From: Escherichia coli
GTDB taxonomy: Bacteria > Pseudomonadota > Gammaproteobacteria > Enterobacterales > Enterobacteriaceae
Reading direction: 5' to 3' (one strand)
Length of the DNA: 64,000 nt
NCBI RefSeq assembly: GCF_051903065.1
Contig: NZ_CP178438.1
The number at the start of each line of letters is the position of its first letter. The first letter of the stretch is position 1. The notes under the pieces were generated by a model. The model was not told where the DNA came from. It made no database searches and was given only the letters and a program-made list of their open reading frames with translations. The translations under genes were made by a program, and so were the position numbers. This document shows positions 1 through 10,564 of the stretch, in pieces.

Positions 1-454
1 GCTCCACCTGGGTGAAGCAGGGCCAGCCCAGCATTTCCGCCAGCAAAAATGGCGTTTGCCCATTCTGCCCTTCGCTGCTTTGGCAGCCGGTAATTATCAG
101 ATCCAGCGGATTCTGACGCTGCCATTCGGCAATATGGCGAGCGACAAATTCCGACGCAAAGCGCAGATCTGCCGCCGTCTCCAGCAATACAGCTTCCTCA
201 AACCCAAGAGCCATGAGATAGCGCAGCCAGTGTAACGCCCGTTCATCCCCCATGCTCAACGCGGTTAAAGACATCGGCGTACCGTTTTTTCTCTGCGCCA
301 ACAGTAGCGCGGCGGCAGCCTGTTCATCAGCACCGAGTAAACTTCGCAGTAGCGAAACATCCGGTCCGCTATTACCCTGAGCCGCCGCCTGCCACTCTTT
401 TTCCGCCAGCATTCCGGCATCCGGTTCGGCTTTAAACGCTAACAGAATGTTCAT
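1..454 (-). CDS. ygcR: Electron-transfer-flavoprotein beta-subunit-like protein, N-terminal part (3' end lies beyond the window start)
   Basis: Reverse-strand translation from the ATG at 454..452 gives MNILLAFKAEPDAGMLAEKEWQAAAQGNSGP..., typical of an ETF-beta fold; the frame stays open to the window edge; overlaps the ygcS stop. Confidence 0.7.
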   Translation of the reverse strand, partial: MNILLAFKAEPDAGMLAEKEWQAAAQGNSGPDVSLLRSLLGADEQAAAALLLAQRKNGTPMSLTALSMGDERALHWLRYLMALGFEEAVLLETAADLRFASEFVARHIAEWQRQNPLDLIITGCQSSEGQNGQTPFLLAEMLGWPCFTQVE

Positions 455-1769
455 TCGCACCTCCTACATTTCCCGCCGCCACCAGCGGGAGGGCTTTGGT
501 TTCTGGTGCCCATAGCCAGGTCACAACAAAACCAACCAACAACACTGCCGCCAGGAGCAATAAGGAGACTTGCATTCCCCACTGCGCCAGCACCCACGGC
601 AGCAGGCCAGTACTTACCGCCGCCCCCAACCGACTCATGGCGGTGGCAAAACCGACGCCCAGCGAGCGAATGTCAGTAGGAAAACTTTCCGCAGGCAAAA
701 TGCCCACCAGATTACTGACTGCCGAAATGGTGGTGCTGAAGAGAACAAAAAGCAGCAGCGTTAATGAACTGCCGGAAGGCAAACAGGCCATCACTACCAG
801 CGTTGCCGCCAGCAGCAAAAAACTTCCCAGCAAAAATTTGCGATGTGCCAGCAGGTGCGTCAGAACTAATCCCAGCAGCGCGCCCACAATTAACAATGCA
901 TTAAGCATCAGGCTGGCAGTCAGCGCATCTTCCAGACCAATAGTCTGGGCGATAGTTGGCAGCCAGGTATAAATCACAAACCATGGGATTACGAGGCAGA
1001 CAAAGAAGACGCTGTTAAACGCCGTGCGCCGCCAGTAACGCGAAGAGAACAAGGTTTTGATGTGTTTATGGGTCGCCGTTACCACTTCATCGCCCAGTAA
1101 AACATGGGGACCAAAATAGCGATGCACGATAGCGTGAGCTTCTGCAAAACGCCCCTGGCGCAGTAGCCAGCGTGGCGATTCTGGCGTTCCCCAGCGTAAT
1201 AACGTAATCAACAACGCGGGCAGAGCTGCCGATGCCAGCAGCCAGCGCCAGGCCTCCGGGCTTTCGCTAATAAAGTGATGTCCGGCAATACTTGCTAACA
1301 CATAGCCTACGGTCCACACCACGCTGAATGCGCCCAGCAAAACACCGCGATGGCGGCGCGGGGAAAATTCAGCCAGCAAGGTGTGACCTACTGAGTAATC
1401 GCCTCCCAGACCAATGCCGATCAAAATGCGCAGTCCAATAAGATGCTCTGGCGTGGTGGCAAAAAATTGCAGGAACGAAGCGAGCGTAATCAGCAAAAAG
1501 CTGAAGGTGAAGATTTTTTGCCGACCAATATGGTCGGAGATCCACCCAAGAACCAGGCTGCCAAGAAACAAACCAAGGAGCGCCGAGCCGCCGATCATTC
1601 CCGCCATAAACGGCGTCAGTTGCATGGCGGGCGTAAGTTGAATAATGGCGTAACCAATGACGCCGAGAACATAACCGTCGGTCAGGTGTGCGCCGAAAGT
1701 GAGCGCAGCAATTCGACAGTGAAAACGGTTAAGCGGTAAATCATCCATTCGCACCGGTGAAGTGTTCAT
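432..1769 (-). CDS. ygcS: MFS-family transporter
   Basis: ORF 432..1841; multi-helix hydrophobic protein with sugar-porter-like motifs; start placed at the internal MNTSPVRMDD (1769) rather than the upstream ORF-track start. Confidence 0.8.
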   Translation of the reverse strand: MNTSPVRMDDLPLNRFHCRIAALTFGAHLTDGYVLGVIGYAIIQLTPAMQLTPFMAGMIGGSALLGLFLGSLVLGWISDHIGRQKIFTFSFLLITLASFLQFFATTPEHLIGLRILIGIGLGGDYSVGHTLLAEFSPRRHRGVLLGAFSVVWTVGYVLASIAGHHFISESPEAWRWLLASAALPALLITLLRWGTPESPRWLLRQGRFAEAHAIVHRYFGPHVLLGDEVVTATHKHIKTLFSSRYWRRTAFNSVFFVCLVIPWFVIYTWLPTIAQTIGLEDALTASLMLNALLIVGALLGLVLTHLLAHRKFLLGSFLLLAATLVVMACLPSGSSLTLLLFVLFSTTISAVSNLVGILPAESFPTDIRSLGVGFATAMSRLGAAVSTGLLPWVLAQWGMQVSLLLLAAVLLVGFVVTWLWAPETKALPLVAAGNVGGANEHSVSV

Positions 1770-1862
1770 CTTTACCCCTTCATTGTCCGGTAATAAGAAC
1801 GGCTTCTCGCCTGAGAAGCCGAAAAGGCAACGCCCCATCATCGCGGAACGCTGCCTGACACA

Positions 1863-3317
1863 TTATTTTTCAATCGGATAGATAGTACCCGTATTCATAA
1901 TGCCGTTAGGATCGAATTGCTTTTTCAGCCCTTCCAGCAACGCCCACGCGCTGCCGTGTTCCAGCTTGCTCCAGTGAACGCGATGTTTACCAATGCCGTG
2001 GTGGTGCACCATCGAACCGCCGAGGCGAATGGTTTCTTCGCAGATGATTTTGTTGAGCGGATTGTGGTACTTGTCGATTTCCTCTTCCGGCTTACAGTCA
2101 ACAACGTTGTAGTCATAGACGAAGTACATGTTTGTGCCGTTCTGATAGCTATGAGAGGAGTGACCGCCCAGCATAGTGATGTCGTCGGCGTGCGGGAACT
2201 CGGTACGAATACGGTTAATAACGCTTTCGTAGATTTCGTGGATGCAGCTCCAGCAGCCGGACACTTCAGTGGTAAAGCCCATGTTGCCGGTTTTGAGGAT
2301 TTGCACACGTTCGGCAGCCACTTTATCCGGTCCCCAGTTCAGGTTGTTAAACCAGGTTTCGATCAGTTTGCTGTCCACGCGCTGGCACTGCGGGTAGCGG
2401 GCAACGATTTCCGCAATCCCTTCGCCCGTCGCCTTCGCAATGCGAGGGTTACCTTCAGCCATAAAGATCAGCACACATTTTCCGTCGGCAAAATGGGTGA
2501 AGTGTTGGGTGCCATCTTCAGCGTCATACAAACGAGCGATCGACGGACGATACCCTTCCACCATGATTTCACGCAGGATGTTGAAGCCGGTTTTCATGTC
2601 TTCCAGGATATAGCCGTAGAAGAGGTTGTTTTTCGGGGTGAATTTAAAGATTTTCACTGTTACTTCAGTGATATAGCACAATGCACCTTCGTTGCCGATG
2701 ATGATGTGACGAATGTCCGGGCCAGCCGCGCGGCGTGGCACGTTTTTAATACGTGTGACGGTGCCATCAGCCAATACGGCTTCCAGACCAACGACCATAT
2801 CTTCGATTGCGCCGTAGAGTGTGGAGAACTGCCCGATACTGCGGGTTGCTACCAGGCCGCCCATCTGCGCCAGCGGCTTTGACTGCGGAGAATGCCCAGT
2901 GGTGTAACCTTTTTCACGCAACGCGTTTTCCAGCACCTCCAGCGGAACGCCACATTGCGCCGTCGCCTGCATATTCTCAATATCAATATTAATGATTTGA
3001 TTCATGGCGGAACCGTCGAGCACCACCGAGTTTTCTACAACAGTTTCCAGCCCACCTTCGGTGGCGGAAGCACCGGTACGCGGCACACCGTTAATTTTGT
3101 GCGCATTCATAAAATTCAGCACACGGGAGACTTGTTCTGTGGAACCGAGTTTTACGACCGCAGCCGGAATCGGCAAAGTATAAATACCATGAATATCCGG
3201 AAATTTACGAAAACGGTCAATACTGTTCTTCTTTAATACTGTTTCATCGGTAATTACGCGATCTGCACCAACAATTTCCTTTAGCTGGTCGACAATCGCT
3301 GCGCGAGATAAAGACAT
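1863..3317 (-). CDS. ygcU: FAD-linked oxidoreductase (GlcD / alkyl-DHAP synthase-like)
   Basis: 484-aa ORF with an FAD-binding PCMH-type domain signature; same length and position as K-12 YgcU. Confidence 0.85.
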   Translation of the reverse strand: MSLSRAAIVDQLKEIVGADRVITDETVLKKNSIDRFRKFPDIHGIYTLPIPAAVVKLGSTEQVSRVLNFMNAHKINGVPRTGASATEGGLETVVENSVVLDGSAMNQIINIDIENMQATAQCGVPLEVLENALREKGYTTGHSPQSKPLAQMGGLVATRSIGQFSTLYGAIEDMVVGLEAVLADGTVTRIKNVPRRAAGPDIRHIIIGNEGALCYITEVTVKIFKFTPKNNLFYGYILEDMKTGFNILREIMVEGYRPSIARLYDAEDGTQHFTHFADGKCVLIFMAEGNPRIAKATGEGIAEIVARYPQCQRVDSKLIETWFNNLNWGPDKVAAERVQILKTGNMGFTTEVSGCWSCIHEIYESVINRIRTEFPHADDITMLGGHSSHSYQNGTNMYFVYDYNVVDCKPEEEIDKYHNPLNKIICEETIRLGGSMVHHHGIGKHRVHWSKLEHGSAWALLEGLKKQFDPNGIMNTGTIYPIEK

Positions 3318-3386
3318 AGTAATTCCTTCCTGATAATAAAAATGGAATAATCATTAATAAGAGAAAACAGAAACCACCGTTATGGG

Positions 3387-4172
3387 TTAGCGCACTAAAT
3401 AACCGCCATCAACCACTAATAAATGCCCGTTGACATAATTCGATGCCGGACTTGCGAGGAATACGGCTGCGCCCATTAAATCCTGAGTATCGCCCCAACG
3501 GTTTGCTGGAATATGATCAAGAACGCGCTGATTGGTTTCTGGATTACTGCGTGTCGCCAGCGTAATATCTGTTGCATAATAGCCAGGGGCGATACCATTT
3601 ACCTGAATATTATATTGACCTAGTTCATCACAATAAGCTTTGGTGAACCCGGCAAGAGCATGTTTAGTGGCAGAATATGCAGGTGACCATTGTCCACCTA
3701 AGTAAGAGAACAATGAACAGATATTAATGATTTTACCGCTTTTCTGCGGGATCATAATTTTTGCTGCTTCGTAGCTTAACTCAAATGCGGCGGTCAGGTT
3801 CACATCAATCATTGGATCCCAGTCGGCACGACCGAAGTCCAGCACCTTATTCAGCTTACAAATACCGGCATTGTTAACCAGAATATCGACGGTACCGAAA
3901 CGTTCGCAACAGGCGGCGATTATCTTCTGCGGCGCGCCTTCTGCGGTGATATCCACCTGCATGAAGTCCACCTCAACACCCTGTTTTTCAATCATTTCCT
4001 TTGTTTCGCCGTTATCTTTGACAAAACTTGGAATAAAGACATTTGCGCCTGCTTTGGCCAACGCCATGGCAAATGCCTGGCCTAAACCGCTATTCCCGCC
4101 GGTAACAATTGCGGTTTTACCTTTCAGGGAGAAAAAATCCATTGAGAACGCATTGAGAGATTCGATTGACAT
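3387..4172 (-). CDS. ygcW: Short-chain dehydrogenase/reductase (SDR) family oxidoreductase
   Basis: TGGNSGLG Rossmann motif and YxxxK catalytic motif (YSATK); start placed at MSIESLNAF (4172) instead of the longer ORF-track start. Confidence 0.85.
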   Translation of the reverse strand: MSIESLNAFSMDFFSLKGKTAIVTGGNSGLGQAFAMALAKAGANVFIPSFVKDNGETKEMIEKQGVEVDFMQVDITAEGAPQKIIAACCERFGTVDILVNNAGICKLNKVLDFGRADWDPMIDVNLTAAFELSYEAAKIMIPQKSGKIINICSLFSYLGGQWSPAYSATKHALAGFTKAYCDELGQYNIQVNGIAPGYYATDITLATRSNPETNQRVLDHIPANRWGDTQDLMGAAVFLASPASNYVNGHLLVVDGGYLVR

Positions 4173-4419
4173 AGTTAGCTCCAATTTCCGTAAGGCAAAA
4201 AAAAAGAAAGGTAACTTCCCCCGCAAGAGGGAAGTTACCTTTCTCATTATCTCTGGTAACTGGAGATAATTTTTAGCATAAGGGCATAACTGCTAATGTG
4301 ATCGTAATCACAGTGTAATATTCGTATTGTCAAATAATTTTAAAAAGCAGAAGCGTGATTACTCTCACACAACACCTCTGCTTTCCATGTTATTTATTAT
4401 TTCAATTACTAGAGACCTG

Positions 4420-4466
4420 AGAAAAGTAATCCACCTGAAAGGGCGGCTTACTTTTCTCTTTTTTTT
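4420..4466 (+). terminator. Terminator-like hairpin plus T-tract in the 5' leader of yqcE
   Basis: Inverted repeat gagaaaagtaa ... ttacttttctc followed by 9 T residues, ending about 25 bp before the yqcE ATG. Confidence 0.35.
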
Positions 4467-4490
4467 GTCTATTACAAATGGGAATACGAT

Positions 4491-5768
4491 ATGCAACACA
4501 ACTCATATCGCCGTTGGATAACCCTCGCGATAATTAGTTTTAGCGGCGGCGTTAGTTTCGACCTGGCTTATTTACGTTATATTTATCAAATTCCCATGGC
4601 GAAATTTATGGGATTCAGCAATACCGAGATAGGTTTAATAATGAGTACCTTTGGTATTGCAGCTATTATTCTTTATGCCCCCAGCGGCGTTATTGCTGAT
4701 AAATTCTCACATCGCAAAATGATTACTTCCGCGATGATCATTACCGGATTACTGGGTCTGTTAATGGCAACGTATCCACCGCTGTGGGTAATGCTCTGTA
4801 TTCAGGTCGCCTTTGCGATAACGACGATTTTAATGCTGTGGTCGGTGTCGATTAAAGCCGCATCGTTGCTTGGCGATCATAGCGAGCAAGGGAAAATTAT
4901 GGGCTGGATGGAAGGGCTGCGCGGCGTCGGTGTAATGTCGCTGGCGGTGTTTACCATGTGGGTCTTTTCTCGCTTTGCACCGGATGACAGCGCTAGCCTG
5001 AAAACGGTCATAATTATCTACAGTGTGGTTTACATCTTGTTGGGGATTCTGTGCTGGTTTTTTGTTAGCGATAACAACAACCTGTGCAGTGCCAATAACG
5101 AAGAAAAACAGTCATTCCAGCTTAGCGACATCCTGGCCGTTTTGCGCATCAGCACCACCTGGTATTGCAGCATGGTGATTTTTGGCGTCTTCACCATCTA
5201 CGCCATTCTGAGTTACTCCACCAACTATCTGACCGAAATGTATGGCATGTCGCTGGTGGCGGCGAGCTACATGGGGATTGTGATCAACAAAATCTTCCGC
5301 GCGCTGTGCGGCCCACTTGGCGGCATTATCACCACCTACAGTAAAGTGAAATCCCCTACCCGCGTGATCCAAATCCTTTCCGTACTCGGCCTGCTGGCGT
5401 TAACTGCCCTGCTCGTCACGAACTCTAACCCGCAATCGGTCGCGATGGGGATTGGCCTGATTTTACTGCTGGGATTCACCTGTTACGCCTCACGCGGGCT
5501 GTACTGGGCCTGCCCTGGCGAAGCGAGAACACCGTCTTACATTATGGGCACCACGGTAGGTATTTGTTCGGTGATTGGATTCCTGCCGGATGTCTTCGTT
5601 TACCCGATTATCGGCCACTGGCAGGACACCCTGCCCGCAGCAGAAGCCTACCGCAACATGTGGCTGATGGGCATGGCGGCGCTTGCCATGGTGATTGTCT
5701 TTACCTTTTTGCTGTTCCAAAAAATTCGTACTGCTGATATCGCCCCCACAACGGCTAACAGCAAGTAA
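4491..5768 (+). CDS. yqcE: MFS-family transporter
   Basis: 425-aa polytopic membrane protein; position and size match yqcE. Confidence 0.85.
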   Translation: MQHNSYRRWITLAIISFSGGVSFDLAYLRYIYQIPMAKFMGFSNTEIGLIMSTFGIAAIILYAPSGVIADKFSHRKMITSAMIITGLLGLLMATYPPLWVMLCIQVAFAITTILMLWSVSIKAASLLGDHSEQGKIMGWMEGLRGVGVMSLAVFTMWVFSRFAPDDSASLKTVIIIYSVVYILLGILCWFFVSDNNNLCSANNEEKQSFQLSDILAVLRISTTWYCSMVIFGVFTIYAILSYSTNYLTEMYGMSLVAASYMGIVINKIFRALCGPLGGIITTYSKVKSPTRVIQILSVLGLLALTALLVTNSNPQSVAMGIGLILLLGFTCYASRGLYWACPGEARTPSYIMGTTVGICSVIGFLPDVFVYPIIGHWQDTLPAAEAYRNMWLMGMAALAMVIVFTFLLFQKIRTADIAPTTANSK

Positions 5769-5794
5769 GCCAGAAAAATTACAGGAGAAAAATC

Positions 5795-7273
5795 ATGTCG
5801 AAGAAATACATCATAGGGATTGATGGCGGAAGTCAGAGCACAAAAGTGGTGATGTACGATCTGGAAGGTAACGTGGTTTGCGAAGGCAAAGGTTTATTGC
5901 AGCCGATGCACACGCCAGATGCCGATACCGCAGAACATCCTGACGACGATTTATGGGCATCATTATGTTTTGCCGGTCACGATTTGATGAGTCAGTTTGC
6001 CGGGAATAAAGAAGATATTGTCGGTATTGGTCTGGGATCCATCCGTTGCTGCCGTGCGTTATTGAAAGCCGATGGCACGCCAGCTGCGCCATTGATTAGC
6101 TGGCAGGATGCACGCGTAACGCGTCCCTACGAACACACTAATCCTGACGTGGCATATGTCACCTCTTTTTCGGGTTATCTAACGCATCGCTTAACCGGCG
6201 AGTTTAAAGACAATATCGCCAACTATTTTGGTCAGTGGCCAGTGGATTATAAGAGCTGGGCATGGAGCGAAGATGCTGCGGTAATGGAGAAGTTTAATAT
6301 CCCTCGTCATATGCTGTTTGATGTGCAAATGCCTGGCACCGTCCTCGGACATATCACACCACAAGCCGCACTGGCGACACATTTCCCGGCAGGGCTGCCG
6401 GTTGTTTGTACCACCAGTGATAAACCGGTAGAAGCTCTGGGAGCCGGATTACTGGATGATGAAACGGCGGTGATTTCTCTTGGCACCTACATCGCGCTGA
6501 TGATGAACGGTAAAGCACTGCCGAAAGATCCGGTGGCGTACTGGCCGATTATGTCTTCTATACCGGAAACATTGCTGTATGAAGGGTACGGTATCCGTAA
6601 AGGCATGTGGACGGTGAGCTGGCTACGCGACATGTTAGGCGAGTCGTTAATTCAGGATGCCAAAGCACAGGATCTTTCACCGGAAGATTTGCTCAACAAA
6701 AAAGCTTCTTGTGTGCCGCCTGGCTGTAATGGTCTGATGACGGTGCTGGACTGGCTGACCAACCCGTGGGAACCCTACAAACGTGGGATTATGATCGGCT
6801 TTGATTCCAGCATGGATTACACATGGATATATCGTTCGATACTGGAAAGCGTGGCGCTGACGCTGAAGAACAATTACGACAATATGTGTAATGAAATGAA
6901 TCACTTTGCAAAGCATGTGATCATTACTGGCGGCGGTTCGAACAGCGATCTATTTATGCAAATTTTTGCCGACGTGTTCAACCTTCCGGCACGCCGTAAC
7001 GCCATTAACGGTTGTGCAAGTCTGGGGGCAGCGATCAATACGGCGGTAGGTCTGGGGCTATACCCGGATTACGCAACGGCTGTCGACAAAATGGTTCGCG
7101 TGAAAGATATCTTTATGCCTGTTGAGAGCAATGCCAAACGCTACGACGCGATGAATAAAGGTATTTTCAAAGCCCTAACCAAACATACTGATGTGATCCT
7201 GAAAAAATCGTATGAAGTGATGCATGGGGAATTGGGGAATGCGGATTCGATCCAGAGCTGGTCGAATGCGTAA
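5795..7273 (+). CDS. ygcE: FGGY-family carbohydrate kinase
   Basis: 492 aa; N-terminal IGIDGGSQSTK actin-fold ATPase motif; RBS aggag upstream. Confidence 0.85.
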   Translation: MSKKYIIGIDGGSQSTKVVMYDLEGNVVCEGKGLLQPMHTPDADTAEHPDDDLWASLCFAGHDLMSQFAGNKEDIVGIGLGSIRCCRALLKADGTPAAPLISWQDARVTRPYEHTNPDVAYVTSFSGYLTHRLTGEFKDNIANYFGQWPVDYKSWAWSEDAAVMEKFNIPRHMLFDVQMPGTVLGHITPQAALATHFPAGLPVVCTTSDKPVEALGAGLLDDETAVISLGTYIALMMNGKALPKDPVAYWPIMSSIPETLLYEGYGIRKGMWTVSWLRDMLGESLIQDAKAQDLSPEDLLNKKASCVPPGCNGLMTVLDWLTNPWEPYKRGIMIGFDSSMDYTWIYRSILESVALTLKNNYDNMCNEMNHFAKHVIITGGGSNSDLFMQIFADVFNLPARRNAINGCASLGAAINTAVGLGLYPDYATAVDKMVRVKDIFMPVESNAKRYDAMNKGIFKALTKHTDVILKKSYEVMHGELGNADSIQSWSNA

Positions 7274-7319
7274 GTGAGGAAGACCGGGCGGGAAACTGCC
7301 CGGCCTGAACATACCTGAA

Positions 7320-7457
7320 TGGTTATCCCCGCTGGCGCGGGGAACATAAGTTCGACAACTTAAAAAATGATAACAAGTCCGGTTTATCCCCGCTGATGCA
7401 GGGAACATAATAAAAACTTTAACTAGTTCGGTTTATCCCTGTTTTTACAAGGAATAT
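7320..7457 (-). CRISPR. Degenerate CRISPR mini-array (3 type I-E-like repeats, 2 spacers)
   Basis: Repeats tggttatccccgctggcgcggggaacat (7320-7347), cggtttatccccgctgatgcagggaacat (7380-7408), cggtttatccctgtttttacaaggaatat (7429-7457); one 32-bp spacer and one 20-bp spacer; same orientation as the main array. Confidence 0.75.
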
Positions 7458-7519
7458 TAACTACACTCGATGTCTTTAGAATAAAAGACAATACGAATCG
7501 CACTTTATCAATTTTCACT

Positions 7520-8576
7520 GGCTTTGTTGAATAAATCGAACTTTTGCTGAGTTGAAGGATCAGATCACGTATCTTCCCGACAACGCAGACCGTTCCGTGG
7601 CAAAGCAAAAGTTCAAAATCACCAACTGGCCCACCTACAATAAAGCCCTCATCAACCGTGGCTCCATAACTTTCTGGCTGGATGATGAAGCTATTCAGGC
7701 CTGGTATGAGTCAGCAACACCTTCTTCACGAGGCAGACCTCAGCGCTATTCTGACCTTGCCATCACGACTGTGCTGGTCATTAAACGCGTATTCAGGCTG
7801 ACCCTGCGCGCTGCGCAGGGCTTTATTGATTCCATTTTTTCTCTGATGAACGTTCCGCTACGCTGCCCGGATTACAGCTGTGTCAGCAGGCGGGCAAAGT
7901 CGGTTAATGTCAGTTTCAAAACGCCCACCCGGGGTGAAATCGCACACCTGGTAATTGATTCCACCGGGCTGAAGGTCTTCGGTGAAGGCGAGTGGAAAGT
8001 CAAAAAGCATGGCCAGGAACGCCGCCGTATCTGGCGTAAGCTGCATCTCGCCGTTGACAGTAAAACACATGAAATCATCTGCGCTGACCTGTCGCTGAAC
8101 AACGTTACGGACTCAGAGGCCTTCCCCGGGTTAATCCGGCAAACCCACCGGAAAATCAGGTCAGCCGCCGCCGATGGCGCTTACGATACCCGGCTATGTC
8201 ACGATGAACTGCGGCGTAAGAAAATCAGCGCGCTTATCCCTCCCCGAAAAGGTGCGGGTTACTGGCCCGGTGAATATGCAGACCGTAACCGTGCAGTGGC
8301 TAATCAGCGAATGACCGGGAGTAATGCGCGGTGGAAATGGACAACAGATTACAACCGTCGCTCGATAGCGGAAACGGCGATGTACCGGGTAAAACAGCTG
8401 TTCGGGGGTTCACTGACACTGCGTGACTACGATGGTCAGGTTGCAGAGGCTATGGCCCTGGTACGAGCGCTGAACAAAATGACGAAAGCAGGTATGCCTG
8501 AAAGCGTGCGTATTGCCTGAAAACACAACCCGCTACGGGGGAGACTTACCCGAAATCTGATTTATTCAACAAAGCC
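7520..8576 (+). mobile_element. IS903-family (IS5 superfamily) insertion sequence, 1057 bp
   Basis: Perfect 18-bp terminal inverted repeats (ggctttgttgaataaatc at 7520; reverse complement ending at 8576); flanked by a 9-bp direct repeat attttcact at 7511-7519 and 8577-8585 (target-site duplication). Confidence 0.92.
7597..8520 (+). CDS. IS903-type DDE transposase
   Basis: Protein ...AKQKFKITNWPTYNKALINRGSITFWLDDEAIQAWYESATPSSRGRPQRYSDLAITTVLVIKR... matches the IS903/IS102 transposase as I recall it; probable GTG start at 7597 (the ORF-track start at 7552 is a TTG extension). Confidence 0.88.
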   Translation: MAKQKFKITNWPTYNKALINRGSITFWLDDEAIQAWYESATPSSRGRPQRYSDLAITTVLVIKRVFRLTLRAAQGFIDSIFSLMNVPLRCPDYSCVSRRAKSVNVSFKTPTRGEIAHLVIDSTGLKVFGEGEWKVKKHGQERRRIWRKLHLAVDSKTHEIICADLSLNNVTDSEAFPGLIRQTHRKIRSAAADGAYDTRLCHDELRRKKISALIPPRKGAGYWPGEYADRNRAVANQRMTGSNARWKWTTDYNRRSIAETAMYRVKQLFGGSLTLRDYDGQVAEAMALVRALNKMTKAGMPESVRIA

Positions 8577-8976
8577 ATTTTCACTTAAAGTATGAACAGG
8601 ATATCTTTATTCATAAGAACTATTCATCAACAGCGTATAGAGGCGGTTATGTAAAACCACTCATTAGCCTCAAAACAAAGACAAATTTCCAGATTTATTA
8701 CTTAATCAATGAATAACAAGCTTAAAAAATACACTGTTATTCTAAAGAAAAAATTAACAGGCATTAATTAATATTAAAAAAATAATATATTAAAATTTCT
8801 TAACGGTTTAAGGATTATACAAATAACACTTTGATTAAATTTGATTTTTTGTATCGATAATTGTGAACTTATCTGGCATGGGGAACTATTTTGAACATGA
8901 GGTGTTACGTGGATATGTTGCTTATTACAAGTACAGCTAATATAAAAACTTGAGAAAGAGATAACGGGTTATATGG

Positions 8977-9554
8977 TGGTTTATCCCCGCTGGCGCGGGG
9001 AACTCGTACTGACGGATAAAAATAATACCTTTTGCGGCGGTTTATCCCCGCTGGCGCGGGGAACTCGTCAACGTTTTTCATGTGGGCATGAGTTGGGGCG
9101 GTTTATCCCCGCTGGCGCGGGGAACTCTATTCGGCCTCGTGCTGGTCGTGACAAAATACCGGTTTATCCCCGCTAGCGCGGGGAACTCTGGCGATATTGC
9201 CTACCGCAACAAAGAAAATACGGTTTATCCCCGCTAGCGCGGGGAACTCATCCACGAATCCAGTGCAAATGAGTTTGTTGGCGGTTTATCCCCGCTAGCG
9301 CGGGGAACTCATTGTGACTACCACCGATAACCCCGCAACCACCGGTTTATCCCCGCTAGCGCGGGGAACTCCTGCATTCGCCTGCGGTTATCAGATCGCT
9401 AAACGGTTTATCCCCGCTAGCGCGGGGAACTCGCTGCCATTACTTCCCGCCAGCGTTGCTCTGGCGGTTTATCCCCGCTAGCGCGGGGAACTCGCAGAGA
9501 ATCGTTCGATTGCCCCTACATCTTCCGGTTTATCCCCGCTGGCGCGGGGAACTC
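8977..9554 (-). CRISPR. CRISPR array, type I-E (E. coli-type) repeats, 10 repeats / 9 spacers
   Basis: 29-bp repeat cggtttatccccgctggcgcggggaactc (reverse complement of GAGTTCCCCGCGCCAGCGGGGATAAACCG) with an exact 61-bp period; nine 32-bp spacers at 9006, 9067, 9128, 9189, 9250, 9311, 9372, 9433, 9494; the first repeat has t instead of c at its first base. Confidence 0.97.
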
Positions 9555-9760
9555 TCTAAACATAACCTATTATTAATTAATGATTTTTTAAGCCAGTCAC
9601 AATCTACCAACTTTACAGTATCACACAAACAACACATCCATTATGTTAAAGAGCGCTTAATCCATTGATTAAAAAGGTAAATATTTAAAATAACTCTATA
9701 CAAACTAAAATCTACCAAACTTTACCGCAATAATTTTCACTCCAACGAAAAATTAACGCC
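9555..9760 (-). promoter_or_regulatory. CRISPR leader (AT-rich, contains the array promoter and integration signals)
   Basis: The sequence abutting repeat 10 (reverse complement ...ATAATAGGTTATGTTTAGA) matches the conserved E. coli leader-repeat junction as I recall it; AT-rich tract; the far boundary is approximate. Confidence 0.7.
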
Positions 9761-9892
9761 ACAGAATTTGTAGAGAATGATAATGATTAGTCCAGGATGG
9801 GCAAAATGGAGGTTTTTCAGAGGCGACAAAGAATATAAATGAGTAGAAGTCTTTACAGGTTCCACCCATTTATAACGCTTATAAAAGTTTAA

Positions 9893-10564
9893 TCAGGCAA
9901 TATTTAGATATTTATGTGTTTGCATCGACAAACGCCAATTACGCGCAATGCAGATTTCAATGCACAATCGTGTGGCATCATCCTTTTGGCTAATCGGCTG
10001 CAGTGCAATGACTCGCGGTTTATCATCGGTCAGCGTTGCCAATAGTTCATCCAGTGCTTCAATATCGCGTACGCGCCCCACTGGATGCTTGATTTCGTTG
10101 GCTCGCTCCAGTGCCTGTGACAACACTTCATAGCCGCCGCGCATGTTCAGCTTTGGCGATACGGTAACCCAGGTATTCGGTGTGCAGCGTACCTCATGAG
10201 TACCACTGGTTTCGATCTGGCAGCTAAAACCGTTCTTTTCGAGCAGATCAGTCAGTGGTAGCAAATCATGAATGCAAGGCTCACCACCCGTAATCACCAC
10301 ATGCCGCGCGGTGTATCCCTGGCGACTAATGACAGCCAACAAGTCTTCACTGCTCGCCGCCCCCCACTTATCACTCTCTTTGGTCTTCGCCAGAATGCTG
10401 AAAAGGGAGACTTCCCGATCCTCAAGCTTTTCCCAGGTGTGTTTGGTGTCGCACCAGGCACAGCCAACCGGGCATCCCTGTAAACGAATAAAAATGGCGG
10501 GGACGCCGGTAAAGTAACCCTCACCTTGCAGGGTCTGGAACATCTCGTTAATCGGGTACTGCAT
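9893..10564 (-). CDS. queE: 7-carboxy-7-deazaguanine synthase (radical SAM)
   Basis: 223 aa, MQYPINEMFQTLQGEGYFTGVPAIFIRLQGCPVGCAWCDTKHTW with the CxxxCxxC radical-SAM cluster motif. Confidence 0.9.
   Translation of the reverse strand: MQYPINEMFQTLQGEGYFTGVPAIFIRLQGCPVGCAWCDTKHTWEKLEDREVSLFSILAKTKESDKWGAASSEDLLAVISRQGYTARHVVITGGEPCIHDLLPLTDLLEKNGFSCQIETSGTHEVRCTPNTWVTVSPKLNMRGGYEVLSQALERANEIKHPVGRVRDIEALDELLATLTDDKPRVIALQPISQKDDATRLCIEICIARNWRLSMQTHKYLNIA

Follow-up and report, generated by a model that had tools for sequence, protein, structure and literature searches.

A predicted CRP- and YgcP-controlled regulon around ygcU in Escherichia coli and its possible role in the degradation of a substituted glycerol

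The ygc–yqcE region of Escherichia coli was analysed at the beginning of a stretch of 64,000 nucleotides (nt) of contig NZ_CP178438.1 (assembly GCF_051903065.1), hereafter the window. The first 9 kb of the window match 5415 of 5426 complete E. coli genomes, 5044 of which cover at least 80% of them, so the window is E. coli chromosome. One genome, NZ_AP045789, is identical over the matched part of these 9 kb (88%), and its annotation supplies the full ygcR gene. In that genome and in MG1655, the gene order is cysJIH, queD, ygcN-ygcO-ygcP (plus strand), ygcQ-ygcR-ygcS-ygcU-ygcW (minus strand), yqcE-ygcE (plus strand), the CRISPR locus and queE. A preliminary description of the window had listed ygcR, ygcS, ygcU and ygcW together with the divergent yqcE-ygcE as a catabolic set, and the genes are indeed there according to Pfam and NCBIfam profiles and the annotation. 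The regulatory RNA and the GlpP-like antiterminator protein described below are absent from that account. The new content consists of an unannotated terminator/antiterminator RNA of the GlpP type, which occurs in two copies under apparent class II CRP promoters, and a flavoenzyme resembling alkyl-dihydroxyacetone phosphate synthase (AGPS) within a predicted kinase–dehydrogenase pathway that is conserved across phyla and linked to quaternary-ammonium compounds. The features of the locus are as follows.

2–454, minus strand: 5′ part of ygcR, the beta subunit of an electron-transfer flavoprotein (ETF), FixA-like; first 151 codons, the gene being cut by the window edge.
432–1769 (or 1841), minus strand: ygcS, major facilitator superfamily (MFS) transporter; Sugar_tr 178 bits, MFS_1 136 bits.
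1863–3317, minus strand: ygcU, AGPS-like flavoprotein of 484 amino acids (aa); FAD_binding_4 and FAD-oxidase_C domains.
3387–4172, minus strand: ygcW, short-chain dehydrogenase (SDR) of 261 aa; adh_short 181 bits.
4197–4264, minus strand: ygcW leader RNA; covariance model R1, 76.9 bits, E 6e-13.
4297–4312, strand not applicable: CRP site TGTGATCGTAATCACA, 10/10 consensus, its centre lying 43 nt upstream of the leader element of ygcW.
4354–4369, strand not applicable: second CRP-like site CGTGATTACTCTCACA, 9/10 consensus, its centre lying 42 nt upstream of the leader element of yqcE.
4401–4466, plus strand: yqcE leader RNA; covariance model R1, 73.8 bits, E 2.6e-12.
4491–5768, plus strand: yqcE, MFS transporter of 425 aa; MFS_1 87.5 bits.
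5795–7273, plus strand: ygcE, FGGY-family kinase of 492 aa; FGGY_N and FGGY_C domains.

The remaining genes of the cluster, ygcQ, ygcP, ygcO and ygcN, are located upstream of the window start. The ygcR fragment, which shares 23 nt with ygcS, matches the ETF profile PF01012 with 40.3 bits (cutoff 26.7). In the PGAP annotation ygcS has 469 aa and begins at 1841, and the true start is likely ATG 1769, because it is preceded by the ribosome-binding site (RBS) AAGGGG and agrees with the K-12 start. The real start of ygcW is ATG 4172; the mechanical 286-aa open reading frame (3387–4247) overruns the gene's own leader terminator. All five genes ygcS, ygcU, ygcW, yqcE and ygcE are intact in the window. 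The ratios of non-synonymous to synonymous substitution (dN/dS) against the orthologues of Klebsiella, Citrobacter, Pluralibacter and Cedecea are 0.01–0.07, with dS above 1 and thus saturated, and by this measure the cluster genes are maintained by strong purifying selection. The 93-nt spacer between ygcU and ygcS contains a 9-bp GC-rich hairpin (1800–1821, minus strand; CGGCTTCTC-AGGC-GAGAAGCCG) followed by a weak U-tract, which might serve as an attenuator within the operon or affect the stability of the RNA.

The region between the divergent ygcW and yqcE genes is 318 nt long, and a terminator scan places a long hairpin with a U-run directly 5′ of each start codon. In the ygcW leader, the 5′ strand AGUUACC (4261–4255) can pair with GGUAACU (4239–4233) to form an antiterminator; the alternative fold is a 19-bp terminator stem (4245–4204) followed by U8, after which come the RBS and ATG 4172. 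The yqcE leader has the same arrangement, with AUUACU (4405–4410) pairable with AGUAAU (4425–4430), terminator arms at 4419–4429 and 4448–4458 followed by U8, and the ATG at 4491. The ygcW-like and yqcE-like upstream regions of 65 genomes share the consensus RUUACY-AGAG-n-GAGAAARGUAAY-(variable tip)-UURCYUUUCUC-U8.

Covariation was computed on an alignment of 57 leaders. Pairing reaches 90.9% in the terminator helix, where nine pairs differ on both sides, and 91.7% in the antiterminator helix of 6–7 bp, which is formed by the 5′ RUUACY with the GUAAY of the terminator 5′ arm and shows compensatory exchanges in two of its pairs (G-C/A-U, 40/14; U-A/C-G, 41/9). In slid controls for the antiterminator helix, the pairing falls to 15–56%. 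The loop AGAG...GAGAAA is invariant in the alignment, and alignment column 33 covaries with one partner in each helix, which fits two mutually exclusive helices. The antiterminator hairpin alone has a folding energy of −6.7 kcal/mol (ygcW) and −1.4 kcal/mol (yqcE), compared with minimum free energies of −41.8 kcal/mol (ygcW, 94 nt) and −23.3 kcal/mol (yqcE) for the whole leaders, terminators included. This difference in stability suggests that termination is the default state and that a protein is needed for the switch.

The covariance model finds exactly two copies of the leader across the 64-kb window. Copies outside the seed were found in a Firmicutes metagenome-assembled genome (MAG), in Sporomusa (a second copy), Salsuginibacillus, Alkalicoccus and Enterococcus canis, as well as in two metagenomic contigs of spore-forming Firmicutes and in a MAG labelled Patescibacteria (L079), and every one of them precedes genes of the cluster or their transporters. 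The leader is present yet unannotated in 5063 of 5426 complete E. coli genomes. No Rfam family covers the two leaders in a scan of positions 1–10000 at E ≤ 1, the matches in this interval being sub-threshold chance ones only (SurA, 26.9 vs. 100; rliE; sR51; Chlorobi-1), and no paper on ygcP or the leaders was found in full-text literature searches; the name ygcO in PMC13104625 is a misspelt ycgO. A leader copy belonging to ygcNOP was considered and rejected, as there is no terminator or motif upstream of ygcN. In four Bacillaceae loci (L059, L062, L064 and L070), the leader RNA governs only a divergent OpuA-type transporter operon; the SDR–YgcU–kinase operon itself carries no leader there, GGAAAATTTTCC-type palindromes precede its SDR gene, and an RpiR/SIS regulator gene comes after it.

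The position of the CRP sites relative to the leaders is strictly conserved. On the ygcW side the spacing is kept in 53 of 53 distinct orthologous regions, and on the yqcE side the centre of the site lies 41–43 nt upstream in 52 of 53. A CRP-like site with at least 8/10 matches, centred 41–44 nt upstream of the first base of the element, is thus found in 105 of 106 orthologous regions, and the spacing of promoter, CRP site and leader is kept across Enterobacterales. With this distance, the transcript would begin with the RNA element, and the E. coli sequence has extended −10 motifs (TGn) at a fitting distance. Binding of CRP to the ygcW/yqcE intergenic site was observed in vitro by footprinting, with a dissociation constant of 1.7 nM (PMC12871828), yqcE-ygcE has been listed as CRP-activated (PMC8085971), and the ygcW-yqcE site was also predicted by PhyloScan. 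From the sequence we infer that both operons are transcribed from class II CRP-dependent promoters.

The probable reader of the leader RNA is YgcP, which is encoded about 1.3–1.9 kb upstream of the window and matches PF04309, the glycerol-3-phosphate (G3P) responsive antiterminator family, with 210.6 bits over profile positions 1–173 of 173. Among 20 loci outside Enterobacterales, the leader RNA occurs in 9 of 9 that have a PF04309 gene and in 0 of 11 that lack one (Fisher p = 6e-6), a co-occurrence that lends good support to this assignment. In B. subtilis, GlpP together with G3P disrupts 5′-untranslated-region (UTR) terminators at glpD, glpFK and glpTQ (PMC9604022). By analogy, each divergent operon would be transcribed from its class II CRP-dependent promoter, and the leader of about 65 nt would by default fold into the intrinsic terminator. 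YgcP loaded with a phosphorylated pathway intermediate would stabilise the weak 5′ hairpin, which would then sequester the terminator 5′ arm and let RNA polymerase read through. We regard this regulatory model, i.e., CRP, a terminator/antiterminator leader and YgcP, as quite probable and as well supported by the comparison of genomes. In our best explanation, ygcNOP, ygcWUSRQ and yqcE-ygcE would form a single catabolic regulon, the analysed region being its right-hand two thirds. The preliminary description had called the set coherent, and the same leader RNA and a CRP site at like spacing in both operons bear this out.

The neighbourhoods of about 70 loci were mapped by tblastn. The SDR (YgcW), YgcU and the FGGY kinase (YgcE) form an invariant trio, usually accompanied by YgcP, which recurs from E. 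coli to Firmicutes with 54–79% identity of YgcU and YgcW across phyla. Between E. coli and Sporomusa, Alkalihalobacillus or Photobacterium, both proteins are 70–79% identical (YgcW 75–79%), and because of the 54–79% identity across phyla the E. coli substrate is probably the same as in the other phyla or very similar. The ETF subunits are only 26–33% identical across the same taxa, far below YgcU and YgcW, suggesting that the ETF was recruited separately. All Bacillaceae loci, Erwinia, Pantoea, Izhakiella and several Serratia have no ETF and FixCX-like genes within 10 kb although they keep YgcU, and the ETF was therefore rejected as a part of the conserved core. Thus, the ETF-like component named in the preliminary description does exist as a domain, but only a fragment of the beta subunit lies in the window and it does not belong to the core. 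One contig labelled as a Planctomycetota MAG (L007) carries a ygcU that is 100% identical to that of E. coli, most likely through MAG contamination.

The YgcU protein has the two-domain FAD fold of the PCMH/VAO type (Pfam FAD_binding_4, 124 bits; FAD-oxidase_C, 70.7 bits). A profile of the YgcU family matches guinea-pig AGPS with E 1.4e-62 and the Dictyostelium enzyme (ADPS) with 8e-56, compared with 3e-38 or weaker for GlcD and D-lactate dehydrogenases. In the AlphaFold (AF2) model of YgcU (pLDDT 83), AGPS accounts for 28 of the top 30 Foldseek matches, including ranks 1–23, with a TM score of 0.78; D-lactate dehydrogenase comes next in the list (TM 0.73), and the LctD-type flavoprotein 7qh2 is also among the matches. 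The His615–617 loop beside the flavin is functionally important in AGPS, and it corresponds to H438–440 of YgcU (SMVHHHGIGK). Likewise, AGPS Arg419 corresponds to R262, Thr568 to S388, and Tyr578 (Dictyostelium Tyr508) to Y398. All of these residues are invariant in the YgcU family, the invariance of Y398 having been scored on 20 sequences of 54–99% identity. Dictyostelium Arg447 falls in a gapped, poorly aligned stretch adjoining YgcU E336-R337. AGPS exchanges the C1 substituent of a derivative of dihydroxyacetone phosphate (DHAP) on the oxidised flavin, with no net redox change, and the role of the catalytic tyrosine and the importance of Dictyostelium R352 (= Arg419) have been described (PMC3509576). 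The same two positions appear in PDB titles, i.e., 4bca (Tyr578Phe mutant) and 4bc7 (Arg419His mutant).

Assignment of YgcU as a GlcD, D-lactate or D-2-hydroxyglutarate dehydrogenase was rejected, since YgcU has HHH rather than xEHG at the histidine loop and scores 141.8 vs. 567.9 for TIGR00387 and 67.6 vs. 1350 for YdiJ. At this position the D-lactate dehydrogenase 9qgz has GEHG, and the second flavoproteins encoded in the anaerobe loci of the cluster have G/S/T-EHG. The earlier terms FAD oxidoreductase and dehydrogenase are therefore probably too generic, the residues of YgcU being of the alkyl-DHAP synthase type and not of the GlcD/D-lactate type. However, since the first ~160 residues of AGPS are absent, YgcU is, as far as its sequence tells, AGPS-like and not AGPS. 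The TWFNNLNW motif and W356 (YgcU 322–356, window ~2250–2354, minus strand) are invariant in the YgcU family and belong to a cap region that does not align with AGPS; their tryptophans W322, W328 and W356 may form an aromatic box that accommodates a quaternary-ammonium group. Truncated YgcU variants are present in databases, and D-serine signalling in enterohaemorrhagic E. coli was unaffected by deletion of ygcU.

None of the analysed cluster proteins reaches an NCBIfam equivalog cutoff. For YgcW, the nearest family is KduD, and this identity was rejected because both scores lie under the respective cutoffs (349.4 vs. 369; 275.6 vs. 338.85); there are no kdu genes nearby. YgcE likewise falls below the cutoffs of XylB (141.4/380), LsrK (139.6/528) and GlpK (100.8/590), and was therefore not assigned to any of them; its scores for GntK, AraB, FucK and RhaB are likewise below the cutoffs. 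The GlpK residues D10, R83, W103 and D245 are kept in YgcE; E84 and the segment containing Y135 are missing (a deletion of about 38 aa), and F270 is replaced by Ala or Gly. The catalytic and glycerol-contacting residues of GlpK are thus retained and the pocket-closing ones lost, which is weakly indicative of a pocket compatible with room for a substituent.

Two further loci show the same logic with exchanged enzymes. Enterococcus canis has an iron-dependent alcohol dehydrogenase (Fe-ADH) in place of the SDR. Beside its main cluster, locus L073 encodes a paralogous set at 349–5317, consisting of a second HHH-type AGPS-like flavoprotein (561 aa) and an FGGY kinase (517 aa) with a GlpD-like DAO/DAO_C dehydrogenase that replaces the SDR. 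Both replacements fit a sequence of kinase, dehydrogenase and AGPS-like steps.

The transporters of the regulon give a hint to the nature of the substrate. Genes for BCCT transporters, for OpuA-type ABC transporters with an OpuAC binding protein, or for MttB-family proteins occur in 12 of 20 non-enterobacterial loci and in 8 of the 9 loci that carry the antiterminator. Several of the betaine-type transporter genes stand directly behind a copy of the leader RNA, so these transporters belong to the regulon, which makes a substituted glycerol bearing a cationic head group a better candidate than a plain sugar. In two anaerobe loci, the cluster is flanked by MttB-superfamily methyltransferase genes. 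In Alkalihalobacillus oceani, seven genes lie on one strand with short gaps; three of them encode the SDR, the kinase and YgcU, and the others an aspartase-like lyase (466 bits vs. 510), a betaine-aldehyde-dehydrogenase-like enzyme (530 vs. 668), a Zn-alcohol dehydrogenase and a BCCT transporter. The preliminary description had suggested a sugar or polyol as substrate, which, in view of the AGPS-type active site and these transporters, is probably too generic for what appears to be a substituted cationic glycerol.

E. coli itself has two MFS transporters instead. YgcS lies below every NCBIfam equivalog cutoff, its best subfamilies being aromatic-acid/H+, sugar-porter and organic-cation (TIGR00898) transporters; it is 26.5% identical to NiaP, and its overexpression raises the production of nicotinamide mononucleotide from nicotinamide (PMC8601175). 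YqcE has weak NCBIfam matches to the D-galactonate (ACS) and phosphoglycerate (OPA) transporter subfamilies, and yqcE adjoins the kinase gene also in Photobacterium and Bacillaceae. As for the redox proteins, YgcR and YgcQ are FixA/B-like (ETF domain, 61.2 bits for full-length YgcR; ETF_alpha, 60.7 bits for YgcQ; all below the NCBIfam equivalog cutoffs), YgcN is FixC-like with a ubiquinone-binding domain of the ETF–quinone oxidoreductase (ETF-QO) type, and YgcO is FixX-like. Every cluster gene is labelled "putative" in the MG1655 RefSeq record, and full-text literature searches found no substrate assignment for the ygc cluster, in agreement with the earlier statement that the substrate is unassigned.

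These data lead us to propose that the CRP/YgcP-controlled regulon degrades a substituted glycerol by AGPS-like displacement, a model to which we give a probability of roughly 0.42. The substrate would be a glycerol with a substituent on one primary carbon. YgcE would phosphorylate the free primary hydroxyl, giving a G3P analogue that is also the likely ligand of YgcP, and YgcW would oxidise C2 to yield a 1-substituted dihydroxyacetone phosphate. By covalent-flavin chemistry of the AGPS kind, YgcU would then displace the C1 substituent with water, giving DHAP and the free substituent. YgcS and YqcE would move the substrate or the released moiety, and the YgcQR ETF with the FixCX-like YgcNO would be an accessory module for redox reactions, its role being left unexplained by the model. 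The order of kinase, SDR and AGPS-like displacement is an inferred scheme that we hold tentatively and at somewhat less than even odds. In other phyla, the substituent would carry a betaine-type quaternary-ammonium group; it is probably, albeit speculatively, a quaternary-ammonium alcohol, and the identity of the substrate is to be taken as a lead only.

As one such lead, the cluster might cleave glyceryl ethers, namely the water-soluble head groups left after deacylation of betaine lipids, for example glyceryl-O-homoserine betaine from diacylglyceryl-trimethylhomoserine (DGTS), a version that we consider unlikely in this specific form. DGTS is found in algae, fungi and phosphate-starved bacteria, and deacylated betaine lipids are glyceryl ethers of such alcohols. 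Here, the kinase and the dehydrogenase would produce an alkyl-DHAP analogue, and the AGPS-type enzyme would run ether formation backwards with water, the products being DHAP and a betaine alcohol. In some bacteria, three enzymes in turn (alcohol dehydrogenase, betaine-aldehyde-type dehydrogenase and aspartase-like trimethylamine lyase) would convert the betaine alcohol to fumarate and trimethylamine, a route that matches the seven-gene operon of Alkalihalobacillus. E. coli may harvest only the glycerol part.

Several observations weigh against the proposed model. On the side of regulation, the covariation of the leaders reflects few independent events among related sequences, and the transcription start sites are predicted ones, as is the binding of YgcP to the RNA. 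With regard to YgcU, the N-terminal region of AGPS is missing, the alignment beginning at AGPS residue 161 (guinea pig) or 95 (Dictyostelium), and with 484 aa vs. 658 for AGPS and 584 for ADPS, the extra length, the gating domain and the C16 tunnel of ADPS are not found in it. The nearest relatives of YgcW are dehydrogenases of sugar acids (KduD, gluconate 5-dehydrogenase), GlpK gives YgcE a lower score than XylB and LsrK do, and YqcE resembles anion and organophosphate MFS families. The E. coli cluster has neither a BCCT or OpuA transporter nor the downstream enzymes of the other loci, and none of its genes has a known enzyme activity, inducer or growth phenotype. In E. coli and many anaerobes the ETF pair directly follows ygcU, whereas an AGPS-type exchange is redox-neutral; the position of the ETF speaks for a net redox change, oxidation or reduction, of which the model gives no account.

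A further difficulty comes from a module consisting of an aldehyde dehydrogenase (Aldedh), a YghZ/YdjG-like aldo-keto reductase (AKR) and a Fae homologue, which is seen in L071 (1–4259) and in L036, L042, L050, L051, L053 and L074. It also carries a YgcS-like MFS transporter and a LysR regulator, and it replaces the ETF in clusters of the Erwinia, Pantoea and Serratia types. The Fae homologue is bona fide (135 bits vs. the NCBIfam cutoff of 118), and one marine-type locus adds GFA. Bacteria without tetrahydromethanopterin are not expected to need Fae. The module implies an aldehyde or formaldehyde by-product, which a simple hydrolytic displacement does not predict.

The strongest competing explanation, which we nevertheless consider rather unlikely, is a conventional sugar or polyol pathway, which spells out the reading of the preliminary description. 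In it, YgcE would phosphorylate a ketose or polyol, YgcW would interconvert an alcohol and a ketone, and YgcU would be a true dehydrogenase that oxidises, for instance, an alpha-hydroxyketone phosphate or, like erythritol catabolism, a polyol phosphate, the electrons flowing from YgcQR via YgcNO to quinone. It accounts for the ETF genes directly after ygcU, for the ubiquinone-binding domain of YgcN and the FixX-like YgcO, for the nearest relatives of YgcE (XylB, LsrK) and YgcW (KduD, Gno), and for CRP control, a usual feature of genes for secondary carbon sources. ETF is indeed used by LctD-type flavoproteins, and 7qh2 is among the structural matches of YgcU; the by-product implied by the Aldedh–AKR–Fae clusters also keeps an ETF-linked dehydrogenase alive as a reading. 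However, the ETF and FixCX genes are missing within 10 kb in several lineages that keep YgcU, and the ETF has diverged to 26–33% identity where YgcU and YgcW stay at 54–79%. YgcU also has HHH with the Tyr and Arg of AGPS, where D-2-hydroxyacid dehydrogenases have xEHG. The anaerobe loci carry the gene for ETF beta, then that for ETF alpha and then one for a GlcD-like xEHG flavoprotein, which is a more natural partner for the ETF than YgcU; the anaerobe ETF may serve this adjacent flavoprotein, which E. coli lacks. Betaine-type transporters would likewise be unexpected for a neutral sugar.

A second alternative keeps the displacement at YgcU but places a nitrogen or sulfur leaving group directly on the glycerol carbon, so that trimethylamine or cysteine would be released together with DHAP, e.g., from an amino-polyol of the 3-(trimethylammonio)propane-1,2-diol type or from S-glyceryl-cysteine derived from lipoprotein turnover. 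The quaternary-amine transporters of the regulon and the MttB-superfamily genes that flank the cluster in two anaerobe loci would suit such a substrate, as would Fae and GFA, which adjoin the cluster in L074 and Erwinia-type loci as expected for methylamine oxidation. The additional enzymes of Alkalihalobacillus, in contrast, suit a released betaine alcohol and not free trimethylamine, glyceryl-cysteine misfits BCCT and OpuA transporters, and we know of no natural source of the trimethylammonio-diol. This alternative is improbable.

It is highly doubtful that the cluster is cryptic or decaying in E. coli, i.e., horizontally acquired, silent and without a current role. Such a view could draw on the lack of a reported phenotype, on the routine use of ygcE as a neutral insertion site (judging from the titles of papers), on the IS903B copies that some strains have within or beside the cluster, on the truncated YgcU variants, and on the ~7% of complete E. 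coli genomes that are without leader and cluster. However, the five window genes are intact with dN/dS of 0.01–0.07 against other genera, the cluster is present in 5044 of 5426 genomes, and the spacing of promoter, CRP site and leader is kept across Enterobacterales. Finally, a biosynthetic role, in which YgcU would make bacterial ether lipids as AGPS does in animals and AGPS homologues maybe do in myxobacteria, is extremely improbable, because, although the AGPS active-site residues are kept, CRP control, inducible antitermination, uptake transporters and a kinase are united in one regulon, YgcU lacks the N-terminal region, the cluster contains no acyltransferase, and E. coli is, to our knowledge, not a producer of ether lipids.

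Downstream of ygcE, the cluster borders on the CRISPR locus, as had been stated before, the first degenerate repeat beginning 44 nt past the ygcE stop codon. The features of this flank are listed below.

7317–7457, strand not applicable: three degenerate type I-E-like CRISPR repeats.
7519–8577: insertion sequence of the IS5 family, IS903B-like, with 34-nt imperfect inverted repeats that are 79% complementary.
8975–9554, strand not applicable: regular CRISPR array of 10 repeats with a 61-nt period, followed by queE.
9893–10564, minus strand: queE, beyond the regular CRISPR array.

A GC hairpin (7283–7306) precedes the degenerate repeats. The IS903B-like element, whose transposase reading frame (7552–8520) matches NF033579 with 357 bits, splits the degenerate repeats from the 10-repeat array; NZ_AP045789 does not have it. 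A further IS903B copy disrupts ygcW in strain L26. A functional tie between the ygc cluster and the neighbouring CRISPR array was considered and rejected, as the evidence for it consists of adjacency only.

The analysis turns ten conserved E. coli genes without an assigned function into a testable hypothesis with named intermediates, residues and an inducer class. The leader RNA would be a protein-dependent proteobacterial antiterminator of the GlpP type that acts on top of CRP control and might be of use as a portable inducible switch. If the chemical scheme is true, covalent flavin catalysis of the AGPS type has a catabolic role in bacteria, and gut, soil, marine and halophilic bacteria have a widespread route by which quaternary-ammonium glycerol derivatives are channelled into central metabolism and, in some taxa, converted to trimethylamine; if the betaine-lipid version is true as well, it would be a new source of gut and marine trimethylamine.

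Among known systems, the regulation most resembles that of B. subtilis GlpP, with a PF04309 regulator, a promoter and after it a 5′ UTR that holds a binding region and an intrinsic terminator, and a regulon kinase that would make a phosphorylated inducer of the glycerol type. The likeness is one of regulator family and leader architecture. In contrast to B. subtilis, the ygc system is found in Proteobacteria and is combined with apparent class II CRP promoters, and its regulon comprises an SDR, an AGPS-like flavoprotein, an FGGY kinase and transporters instead of glpFK and glpD.

For YgcU, AGPS/ADPS (EC 2.5.1.26) is the best match in both sequence and fold, with the Arg, Thr/Ser, Tyr and HHH loop kept. 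YgcU differs from it in being part of an inducible catabolic operon with a kinase and transporters, with an ETF adjoining in some lineages, and its acceptor would presumably be water and its substituent small and polar rather than a C16 chain. The mammalian alkyl-DHAP reductase (DHRS7B) is described as an SDR (PMC13200781), an enzyme of the same class as YgcW that interconverts 1-substituted G3P and DHAP next to an AGPS-type step. In the ygc pathway, however, the direction would be reversed (oxidative and catabolic), and YgcW belongs to the KduD/Gno-like group of SDRs and is presumably not an orthologue of DHRS7B.

The redox module recalls fixABCX/caiTABCDE of E. coli through the FixA/B-like YgcR/Q, the FixC/X-like YgcN/O, the link to quaternary amines and the BCCT transporters of related loci, but the ygc cluster has no CoA-transferase or acyl-CoA dehydrogenase genes, and its ETF is dispensable in many lineages. 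The anaerobe loci share the order of ETF beta, ETF alpha and xEHG flavoprotein with LctBCD of Acetobacterium woodii (PDB 7qh2), whereas E. coli is without the second flavoprotein and YgcU is not of the xEHG type. Erythritol catabolism (EryA/EryB) also starts with an FGGY kinase, followed by oxidation of the carbon beside the phosphorylated one, and the paralogue set of L073 has a GlpD-like enzyme in the position of EryB. Unlike that pathway, the ygc regulon has none of the Ery isomerases, and it contains instead an AGPS-type flavoprotein and betaine-type transporters.

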